A program made the translations under genes and the position numbers. From a virus (taxonomy: Duplodnaviria > Heunggongvirae > Uroviricota > Caudoviricetes), in IMG/VR virus record IMGVR_UViG_2802429251_000007, positions 1 to 30,664 of that record: a DNA stretch of 30,664 bases. One strand, written 5' to 3'. Position 1 is the stretch's first letter, and each line of letters opens with the position of its first letter. Shown piece after piece: positions 28,371 through 29,267 of this stretch. The notes under the pieces were generated by a model. The model searched no databases, had not been told where the DNA came from, and saw nothing but the letters and a program-made list of their open reading frames with translations.

Positions 28371-28376
28371 AAAGAA

Positions 28377-28406
28377 AAAGCCATCGATAGAAATATCGAT
28401 GGCTTT
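28377..28406. terminator. bidirectional terminator between tfa (+) and the acetyltransferase (-)
   Basis: 13-bp stem AAAGCCATCGATA / TATCGATGGCTTT with a GAAA loop. An A-rich tract on one side gives the U-run for the minus-strand gene; TTT lies on the other side. Confidence 0.75.
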
Positions 28407-28413
28407 ATGTGCT

Positions 28414-28986
28414 CTATTTATACAATACAACACCGCTCTTTTTAGTTATATATGTGCAGTTCGATGGTATATCTTTATTTATAAAAGACATTGCGCCTAT
28501 TTTTACATTATCCCCAATTTTACGTGATAATCCAATGATGCAACAATTAGCTCCGATATCAACGTTACTACCAATTTTTACTCTTGAACCAGGTATGTCA
28601 CCATCTATCTGTCCAATCGTAGTATTCTGTCGTAACACCAGATTTTCACCAGCATCAACAGCAAAATGAACAACAATTCCAGCGTGATGGGGAATTGTTA
28701 GCCCTTTTCCAATTTTTGCTCCCAGTCCAATCTCGCAACCAAATTTGTTAATTATTTTATTGTTTAACTTTTTAGCAGCTTTCTTATGTAATTTATTACC
28801 ATTAATATACATTTCGTTAGCCAGCCGCCACCAGAAAAGGAAATTCCTGTTACGTTGTTTTTTTTCTCTGAAAAGCCTCCAGATATCCATATACTCCCGC
28901 CGTATTACTTCAGATTTCCAAAAGCTTTTTAAATCAGAAGAATTCCCAAGTAAAACAAAATGAATTGCTATTAAGTAAGATAACAC
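28414..28986 (-). CDS. hexapeptide-repeat (left-handed beta-helix) O-acetyltransferase, CysE/WbbJ/NeuO-like
   Basis: GTG start 6 nt after AAGGAG (28998-28993). The C-terminal half shows hexapeptide repeats (GCEIGLGAKIGKGLTIPHHAGIVV...VKIGSNVDIGANCCIIG..KIGDNVKIGAMSFI). Strongly AT-rich, on the opposite strand to all tail genes. Confidence 0.85.
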   Translation of the reverse strand: MLSYLIAIHFVLLGNSSDLKSFWKSEVIRREYMDIWRLFREKKQRNRNFLFWWRLANEMYINGNKLHKKAAKKLNNKIINKFGCEIGLGAKIGKGLTIPHHAGIVVHFAVDAGENLVLRQNTTIGQIDGDIPGSRVKIGSNVDIGANCCIIGLSRKIGDNVKIGAMSFINKDIPSNCTYITKKSGVVLYK

Positions 28987-29015
28987 GATAATCTCCTTAA
29001 TTATTACTTTCGACC

Positions 29016-29045
29016 ATATTAGCCCTAAATTTAATGAAGTGTAAA
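29016..29045 (-). promoter_or_regulatory. putative sigma70 promoter of the acetyltransferase (TTTACA - 18 nt - TAATAT on the minus strand)
   Basis: -35 at 29045-29040 and -10 at 29021-29016, about 25 nt upstream of the SD. Motif level only. Confidence 0.4.
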
Positions 29046-29138
29046 ATCTGGTTGTTTGTTATTTAAAAGCTAAGTTCGTGATACTTTACGGATGCTGAGG
29101 AGAGCATTATACGATATTTTTCTGCACACTCATAGTAA

Positions 29139-29267
29139 CAAACACCAGAACAATGGGCGCAGGCCGGGCGATTAATTGCATCAGGCGTTCCTCGCCAGAA
29201 GGTGGCTATTATCTATGATGTTGGTGTGTCAACTTTGTATAAGAGGTTTCCGGTCGGAGATAAATGA
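29139..29267 (+). pseudogene. 3' remnant of a Pin/Gin/Hin-family DNA invertase (C-terminal HTH only)
   Basis: The frame opens right after a TAA at 29136-29138 and reads QTPEQWAQAGRLIASGVPRQKVAIIYDVGVSTLYKRFPVGDK*. This matches the C-terminal DNA-binding helix region of Pin/Gin (..EQAGRLLAQGIPRKQVALIYDV..STLYKK..) from memory. The catalytic N-terminal part of about 140 aa is absent. Confidence 0.75.

Follow-up and report, generated by a model that had tools for sequence, protein, structure and literature searches.

The closest described counterparts of the locus analysed here are the Gin/Cin/Pin/Hin switches of phages such as Mu, P1 and e14, the cargo genes of P2-related prophages and the hexapeptide O-acetyltransferases encoded by prophages and by polysaccharide gene clusters. 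The locus belongs to a 30,664-nucleotide stretch of a tailed virus, an E. coli prophage (Caudoviricetes; IMG/VR record IMGVR_UViG_2802429251_000007, positions 1 to 30,664), which is termed the window below, and it comprises a tail-fibre gene, the tail fibre assembly gene tfa, a convergent gene for a 190-residue acetyltransferase and a remnant of a DNA invertase gene. Sister prophages of the window have the complete Gin/Cin/Pin/Hin-type system, with a fibre gene containing an internal crossover site (pix), tfa, an inverted tfa'/fibre' segment and the invertase gene pinE. The window resembles them in retaining the last 42 invertase codons, which encode an HTH_7 domain, but it has no alternative segment, no invertase catalytic domain and neither of the crossover sites. 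The preferred explanation, which as a whole is assigned a probability of roughly 60%, is that a module comprising the fibre tip, tfa and the acetyltransferase gene would have been exchanged into the prophage, that the acetyltransferase is a companion of tfa, and that the enzyme O-acetylates a glycan, a role that is inferred.

The position of the acetyltransferase gene corresponds to the slot described by Wiles et al. as 'moron position 2', which in CFT073 holds neaT, an opposite-strand, low-GC acyltransferase gene (PMC3573123). Like neaT, which is carried by the CFT073 prophage phi-b0847, the window's gene lies directly after tfa on the opposite strand, is low in GC content and encodes an acyl/acetyltransferase, whereas NeaT is an integral-membrane Acyl_transf_3 protein (PF01757) and the window encodes a soluble left-handed beta-helix (LbH) enzyme of the CysE/WcaB branch; the relation between the two is one of analogy and not of homology. 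Another example of cargo at this position is Z/fun of P2. NeuO of prophage CUS-3 is a phase-variable capsule O-acetyltransferase whose gene has a 5' tandem heptanucleotide repeat tract. The analogy to NeuO drawn in a preliminary description of this DNA holds for position and enzyme superfamily, since both are prophage-borne O-acetyltransferases of the hexapeptide superfamily encoded beside a receptor-binding tail protein gene. It fails in that the window enzyme falls in a different LbH branch (CysE/WcaB), has no 5' tandem repeat tract (none is found in 28300-29400) and has carriers that are not limited to one capsule or O type. With the cellular enzymes WcaB/EpsC and CysE, the window enzyme shares an N-terminal helical domain, the LbH fold and a catalytic His/acid dyad; it differs from them in falling below every NCBIfam equivalog cut-off, in having an FWWRLANEM motif and in lacking the serine pocket of CysE, and from WcaB/EpsC additionally in that its gene is carried by phages and plasmids rather than by a polysaccharide gene cluster. 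An orthologue with 90% amino acid identity, the same tfa partner and the same terminator hairpin is sacF of the P1-like phage-plasmid JL22 (PMC9603915), which differs from the window's gene in its location inside a working C segment with cin, in its unrelated upstream region and in its ATG start.

A megablast search of the window against complete E. coli genomes identifies sister prophages that belong to its family and are integrated at the same pphA site. In the prophage of strain PEC399 (L008), the order is fibre gene, tfa, inverted tfa', inverted and partial fibre C', an intact pinE on the plus strand (184 amino acids) and pphA. A pattern search with the core AAACC-NN-GGTTT places inverted crossover sites at about 19853 inside the fibre gene (pixL) and at about 21675 just before pinE (pixR). 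By blastn, the window is collinear with L008 up to 26876 (L008 position 19681) and again from 29142 (L008 position 22178) to the window end. The alignment with an intact-segment prophage that the preliminary description had proposed thus defines the junctions as 26876/26877 and 29141/29142. The exchanged block between them (26877-29141; 2265 bp, from blastn against L008 and a second sister, L007) stands for 2496 bp of L008 (19682-22177), which hold the C-terminal part of the fibre gene with pixL, tfa, tfa', fibre', pixR and pin codons 1 to about 143. Homology breaks about 170 nucleotides before the position of pixL in L008, and the block takes in two thirds of the fibre gene and tfa, not the acetyltransferase gene alone.

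Between 26500 and 29400, the pattern search finds no counterpart of the L008 or JL22 crossover sites. The only match to the pattern in the window, at 26555 with two mismatches, lies in conserved baseplate sequence that is also present in L007 and is taken as chance. Because no pix- or gix-like crossover site is left, the fibre of the window is predicted to be fixed and the switch to be dead, as the earlier suggestion of a frozen host range had it. An independent decay of the same switch is seen at the pphA site in L007 (NZ_CP119006.1, 19854-21556), where half a pix site is joined to unrelated sequence and is accompanied by a fibre gene that is truncated, only one tfa, which is short, and a recombinase gene interrupted by a stop codon.

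In the proposed course of events, a myovirus-type prophage next to pphA would have gained 26877-29141 by recombination as a host-range module composed of a gp37/Stf-type tip, its Tfa chaperone and a convergent, AT-rich and self-terminated gene for a CysE/WcaB-type O-acetyltransferase. One end of the exchange would have fallen within the fibre gene upstream of the crossover-site position and the other at about codon 144 of pin. With the exchange, the alternative tip, the two crossover sites and the half of the invertase that holds its catalytic domain would have been lost, leaving a 42-codon helix-turn-helix (HTH) stub to decay.

The same module is found in other phage backbones. Positions 27171-29068, which cover the tip, tfa, the terminator, the acetyltransferase gene and 82 bp upstream of it, are 95% identical to a P2-like prophage (L003), in which the module lies between H/G (G being tfa) and the next tail gene, that is, at 'moron position 2'. 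Positions 27171-28985 are 87.5% identical to JL22, where the order is stf, tfa, sacF, U', S' and cin, the last four on the minus strand, and where the block is flanked by the cix sites (at about 4828 and 10270) and by 602-bp inverted repeats, so that it forms part of an intact C segment, accompanied by an intact cin. The C segment is found in the other orientation on plasmid p15648-1, and a P1-like IMG/VR contig (L092) carries U', the acetyltransferase gene, tfa and a gene for a 194-residue invertase. The pair of tfa and acetyltransferase genes is present on at least 35 P1-like-sized plasmids (about 87-105 kb, mostly non-mobilizable), and the acetyltransferase gene is also convergent with the tfa that follows the fibre gene in Citrobacter phage phiNP (47% amino acid identity) and Hafnia phage yong2 (37%).

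A survey of 80 IMG/VR loci finds a convergent tfa within 300 bp of the acetyltransferase gene in 67, no room for one on the contig in 4 and another arrangement in 9. Several of these nine nevertheless have the gene in the slot distal to the fibre: L110 has the order fibre-tfa-orf151-acetyltransferase, and L111, L113 and L115 have the same open reading frame (ORF) layout (layout only, not confirmed by Pfam); in L105 the acetyltransferase gene adjoins an HtrL_YibB-tfa-fibre group, and L106 is similar. Protein identities of the acetyltransferase and of tfa rank together across homologues (94/96, 90/93, 69/86, 47/56 and 37/49, respectively). The gene has the traits of moron-slot cargo, namely a position after tfa, opposite orientation, low GC content and its own terminator, and the same slot is occupied in P2-like and P1-like phages, phiNP and yong2. 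From these comparisons, the acetyltransferase gene is judged not to have displaced the invertible segment but to have long accompanied this tfa type across several unrelated phage backbones, even within working invertible segments. In the P2-like prophages L021-L026, which have a 69%-identical homologue, the slot also contains an 87-residue truncated tfa fragment and a class I S-adenosylmethionine (SAM) methyltransferase gene between two tfa copies, contents that indicate repeated cassette turnover at this position.

The 190-residue protein gives a full-length match to phrog_2154 (1.7e-84; residues 15-190 against profile positions 5-181 of 185), and its Pfam profile match is Hexapep. Among NCBIfam models, EpsC ranks first (5e-21), followed by CysE (5e-17) and WcaB (1.5e-14), all with scores far below the cut-offs. 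For the CysE equivalogs these scores are 62.3 against 210.65 bits (TIGR01172) and 40.2 against 397 bits (NF008349), and for the WcaB equivalogs 53.8 against 196 (NF007564) and 53.1 against 194.65 (TIGR04016). An AlphaFold2 model generated with 44 homologues has a predicted local distance difference test (pLDDT) score of 95, and the top 50 PDB matches returned by Foldseek are all CysE (TMq about 0.72), with a helical N-terminal domain and an LbH. Similarity at the sequence level is somewhat greater to WcaB (35% identity over 109 residues of the LbH domain, 1e-15) than to CysE (8e-11). According to K-12 product names, WcaB belongs to the colanic-acid pathway, in which the repeat unit is assembled on sugars linked to undecaprenyl diphosphate (Und-PP).

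In CysE, His158 and Asp143 are catalytic, and Asp92, Asp157, Arg192 and His193 make up the serine/cysteine pocket (PMC9547175). The active site of the window enzyme is read from pairwise and multiple alignments to K-12 CysE, with column counts over the 44 homologues. The equivalent of His158 (H100) is kept in 43 of these and the equivalent of Asp143 (position 85) is D or E in every one. The equivalent of Asp157 (position 99) is proline in the window enzyme and is never aspartate across the family, the region of Arg192/His193 (134-136) is variable among homologues, and the enzyme lacks both the Asp92 region and the C-terminal tail that binds CysK. Its N-terminal domain falls short of that of CysE by about 60 residues and contains the FWWRLANEM motif, which is specific to the family. 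Ratios of nonsynonymous to synonymous substitution rates (dN/dS) of 0.12-0.14 against four homologues indicate that the gene is kept by selection. It is concluded that the protein is a predicted active acetyl-CoA-dependent O-acetyltransferase, with a putative acceptor other than L-serine. By the same predicted active site, the very widespread phrog_2154 acetyltransferase family is misnamed 'serine acetyltransferase'. One plasmid record (L034; NZ_CP009051.1, 5618-6190) carries the label GO:0006535, 'cysteine biosynthetic process from serine', which the active-site comparison does not support.

The most likely role inferred for the enzyme is a prophage-expressed O-acetylation of a glycan on the cytoplasmic face, such as the core of lipopolysaccharide (LPS) or a lipid-linked repeat; glycan O-acetylation, taken as a function on its own, is given somewhat less than an even chance. 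An acceptor of this kind is favoured by the EpsC/WcaB branch of the enzyme, by the neaT-type slot and by two cases of gene neighbourhood. Directly after its fibre gene, a Xenorhabdus prophage of the same baseplate family carries the homologue and then, on the same strand, a gene for a GT25 'LPS biosynthesis' glycosyltransferase (PF01755, 1.6e-35); the two genes appear to be co-transcribed. In L105 and L106, the homologues are paired with an HtrL_YibB gene, a type whose K-12 archetype borders the waa LPS-core cluster. Carriers include strains of O groups O26, O45, O103 and O111, and this spread makes a conserved acceptor (LPS core, enterobacterial common antigen or colanic acid) likelier than a single O-unit.

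Under this mechanism, the enzyme would be made from the prophage and, by means of its conserved His/acid dyad and acetyl-CoA, would O-acetylate a sugar acceptor, such as LPS core or a repeat unit carried on undecaprenyl, on the cytoplasmic side of the inner membrane. The outcome would be an altered cell surface, and thus lysogenic conversion, possibly blocking the adsorption of phages that use the same receptor. A narrower proposal, in which tip and enzyme form a 'bind-and-mask' unit and the enzyme O-acetylates the receptor glycan of the tip to which it is linked, is unlikely to be correct. Its most plausible target would be the LPS core, which is built on the cytoplasmic face; to our knowledge, no phage LbH enzyme has been described that O-acetylates the LPS core of E. 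coli. If the proposal were true, acquisition of a tip would also bring exclusion of same-receptor rivals and protection of progeny from cell debris. Because the P1-like pair lies inside the invertible segment, inversion in those phages would then change the transcriptional context of the acetyltransferase gene together with the expressed tip.

Three other explanations are set against the preferred one. The preliminary description had proposed that an acetyltransferase cassette replaced the alternative fibre segment and the 5' half of the invertase gene; in such a scenario, a free-standing cassette would have been inserted by the same event that deleted these parts, and the original fibre gene and tfa would have stayed in place. 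The loss itself is borne out, since L008 has tfa'/fibre'/pinE at the same site whereas the window is without tfa'/fibre' and pin codons 1 to about 143 and has the acetyltransferase gene exactly there, and the AT-rich composition of the gene, with its own Shine-Dalgarno (SD) sequence and terminator, would suit a cassette. However, divergence from the sister prophage already starts at 26877, so the C-terminal part of the fibre gene and tfa were exchanged along with the rest, and tip, tfa and acetyltransferase gene occur together at 87-95% identity in P2-like and P1-like phages. Moreover, the same acetyltransferase gene coexists with intact invertible segments and cin in JL22, p15648-1 and L092, which leaves the insertion of a lone cassette improbable. 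Such coexistence is what the preliminary description had itself named first among the findings that would speak against its proposal. The usual gene order assumed for that proposal, with the invertase on the strand of the fibre gene, also does not extend to P1-like phages, in which cin is opposite to the fibre.

As regards the enzyme, it might be a true serine O-acetyltransferase, encoded by an auxiliary metabolic gene that would strengthen CysB signalling in the lysogen or its synthesis of O-acetylserine and cysteine. This would agree with the RefSeq and NCBIfam name, with CysE as the best match among solved structures in sequence and fold and with the retained His/acid dyad. It is made very improbable by the missed cut-offs (62 against 210 bits for TIGR01172 and 40 against 397 for NF008349), by pocket residues (Asp92, Asp157, Arg192 and His193) that are absent or not conserved in the 44 homologues, by the N-terminal domain shortened by about 60 residues and the missing CysK-binding tail, and by the greater similarity to the polysaccharide enzyme WcaB. 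An intracellular or small-molecule target other than a glycan, with the gene serving as a moron for anti-phage defence, counter-defence or modification of xenobiotics or antibiotics in a permissive slot at the end of the late operon, is the least unlikely of the three but is still doubtful. Unrelated genes are known to occupy the slot, which is a general moron position (PMC3573123), its other cargo in relatives includes methyltransferase, hicAB, hok and Ail/Lom-like outer membrane protein genes, some homologues are not linked to tfa, and discordant synonymous divergence speaks against strict co-inheritance. Against such a target stand the lack of any PADLOC model match (no family at E <= 1 in a PADLOC-DB 2.0 scan of the acetyltransferase), the exopolysaccharide acetyltransferases EpsC and WcaB as closest functional relatives by profile, the pairing of two homologues with LPS-type genes and a tfa adjacency that persists down to 37-47% protein identity in other genera.

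The preferred explanation, a module exchange together with a tfa-linked glycan O-acetyltransferase, has to be weighed against several further observations that count against it. The link to LPS rests on the two gene-neighbour cases given above. The literature on phrog_2154 homologues contains no characterised member; the JL22 paper states that the role is unknown (PMC9603915), and a C. rodentium paper only lists the acetyltransferase gene as 'fitness' cargo. Homologues without an adjoining tfa are found at the end of an HP1-like prophage, on an EAF-type plasmid near bfp, in ESSI2_ev040 (by int/abi) and on an Orbus chromosome. Synonymous divergence (dS) is discordant within pairs (tfa against acetyltransferase, 0.055 against 0.23 for L003 and 2.3 against 0.39 for L096), which indicates that the module is itself mosaic. 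Strict co-inheritance of the two genes as one unit is rejected on these values and persistent adjacency only is claimed; the linkage may stem from a permissive insertion slot rather than from functional coupling. The N-terminal helix was also considered as a membrane anchor and rejected, as its best 19-residue window has a mean Kyte-Doolittle hydropathy of 1.28. Finally, the promoter candidate at 29045-29016 that was put forward earlier matches the consensus at 9 of 12 positions and is one of 11 such matches, against 5.5 +/- 2.8 expected from shuffled sequence; it is no better than chance and is discarded as evidence.

A literature search on P2-like hotspots and anti-phage genes and on prophage hexapeptide and O-antigen enzymes returned nothing relevant. 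On EAF-type plasmids of enteropathogenic E. coli (L015-L020, for example the plasmid CP042948.1), a 51%-identical homologue lies among IS66 elements with no phage context and comes shortly after bundle-forming-pilus-like genes (prepilin peptidase A24, SLT).

Taken as a whole, the locus is an ordinary case of prophage mosaicism in which a tail-fibre module has been swapped, an invertase stub is dead and a moron is present; RefSeq already has annotations for all of its parts, and the acetyltransferase gene has been noted in one paper. Its wider relevance lies in an acetyltransferase family that is persistently linked to tail fibre assembly genes in P1-like phages, P2-like phages and other myoviruses of Shiga toxin-producing E. 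coli and other Enterobacterales. Should LPS or some other glycan of the cell surface be the enzyme's target, phage susceptibility, the prediction of host range in phage therapy and possibly the serology of pathogenic E. coli would be affected, and a systematic annotation error (GO 'cysteine biosynthesis' in plasmid records) would be put right.

The invertase stub (29142-29267, plus strand; 42 codons) has no start codon; its frame opens behind two stop codons, and its translation reads TPEQWAQAGRLIASGVPRQKVAIIYDVGVSTLYKRFPVGDK up to a terminal stop. It matches HTH_7 (PF02796, the helix-turn-helix domain of resolvase) at 1.9e-10, above the gathering score, and its DNA is 96% identical to the 3' end of L008 pinE, with homology from 29142 (nucleotide about 430 of 555). 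The resolvase catalytic domain with the active-site serine is absent from the stub, and only the 42 C-terminal codons are left. Retention of the stub as a small residual HTH protein was considered and rejected, as it has no plausible start codon and is decayed in L096.

The same right end, with the order fibre-tfa-acetyltransferase-stub, adjoins torT and yfhH in other strains, and the acetyltransferase/stub junction is thus seen at three attachment (att) sites (pphA, torT and yfhH). The identical 190-residue protein is listed for 1498 blocks of the assembly collection; in all 26 contigs that were read, it lies at the yfhH or the torT site and the order of tfa and acetyltransferase gene is the same. 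Of 5426 complete genomes, 16 contain the full 155-bp segment upstream of the acetyltransferase gene, in every case at 95-99% identity or better, and these correspond to the 16 stub-bearing records. An IMG/VR contig (L096; UViG_2825508220_000004, about 80% DNA identity) has the upstream region in common with the window through the first dozen bases of the stub; past this shared junction follow an insertion of about 860 bp and a decayed invertase C-terminus. Between the window and L096, nonsynonymous divergence (pN) is 0.31 in the stub against 0.054 in the acetyltransferase gene. The stub is interpreted as a decaying pseudogene. The shared junction at about 80% DNA identity, together with the decay measured by pN, indicates that the fusion predates considerable divergence; it is judged to be old and to be a trait of a circulating phage lineage, not local decay in this genome. 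Beyond its decayed stub, L096 (313-2670) has umuD/umuC-like and cold-shock-protein-like genes, which were recognised by eye from ORF translations with no profile search run.

The tail-fibre gene (26716-27792, plus strand; Pfam Collar, 2e-12) begins with an ATG that overlaps the stop codon of the upstream DUF2612/Wedge1 baseplate gene (ATGA). Its constant N-terminal part (26716-26876, plus strand) is 97% identical to L008 and L007 up to 26876. The fibre tip (27171-27792, plus strand), which is the receptor-binding end and is of the T4 gp37/lambda Stf type with HxH repeats, is assigned from the Collar domain and tblastn. Its amino acid identity is 99% to the fibre tip of a P2-like prophage and 77% to JL22 stf, and its best characterised relatives by tblastn are T4 gp37 (64%) and lambda Stf (61%). 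A P2 gpH-like tip with an LPS-core receptor was also considered and was dropped because tblastn favours T4 gp37 and lambda Stf. The receptors characterised for tips of the gp37/Stf type are OmpC and LPS, and the receptor of the window's tip could be OmpC and/or LPS. The tail fibre assembly chaperone gene tfa (27792-28370, plus strand) is identified by Pfam Caudo_TAP (1.4e-41) and phrog_105 (5.6e-97). A full-length match to Rfam 'IS009' (189 bits) at 28135-28333 lies wholly within the tfa coding sequence, and this model apparently represents the conserved 3' region of tfa, not an independent RNA gene.

After tfa comes a hairpin (28377-28406) with a 13-bp stem and a T-run, which is kept in JL22 and serves as the predicted intrinsic terminator of the acetyltransferase gene on the minus strand. 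It scores as a terminator for that strand only and is weak at best for tfa. The acetyltransferase gene (28414-28986, minus strand; phrog_2154, RefSeq name 'serine acetyltransferase') has a GTG start six bases after the SD sequence AAGGAG at 28993-28998, and its GC content of 0.33-0.36 compares with 0.45-0.53 across the fibre gene and tfa. The preliminary description had reported the order fibre, tfa, hairpin, minus-strand acetyltransferase gene and invertase 3' end, and these features are indeed found at or near the positions it gave. It was likewise right about an AT-rich acetyltransferase gene with its own SD sequence and about an invertase of which only the last 42 codons or so remain, without the catalytic domain, but the terminator that it called bidirectional, though present as a hairpin, is not clearly so.

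The region upstream of the acetyltransferase gene (28987-29141, minus strand; 155 nucleotides) contains the SD sequence and the weak promoter-like match at 29016-29045. Its first 82 nucleotides are common to the P2-like copies, and all 155 are shared only by carriers of the same stub; the remaining 73 bp (29069-29141) have no match except in those carriers. In this lineage, 29069-29141 is part of the acetyltransferase upstream region, as seen in L096.

Downstream of the stub, pphA (PrpA, 6.5e-132) occupies 29729-30388, which identifies the window end as the right end of the prophage. Many lambdoid phages that convert for Stx1a, Stx2a or Stx2c have, close to their right end, a sequence with 91% identity to the 65 bp just past the stub (29275-29339), and a weak partial Rfam CssrB match overlaps 29241-29301. 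At 29502-29601, an overlapping small RNA (sRNA) pair gives Rfam matches below threshold, with 32.2 bits for SraC/RyeA (cut-off 37) and 30.3 bits for SdsR/RyeB (cut-off 38). Of SdsR, the terminator at the 3' end is well kept and the middle is absent. The bidirectional sRNA locus beside pphA is a known insertion hot spot for horizontally acquired DNA, which fits the position of the prophage. The left part of the window (1166-1340, 3405-3606 and 5355-5508) contains a sok antitoxin RNA, a P1/P7-type C4 antisense RNA with a1/b1 targets and an isrK-like RNA, as well as two tRNA genes, Thr-TGT and Gly-TCC.

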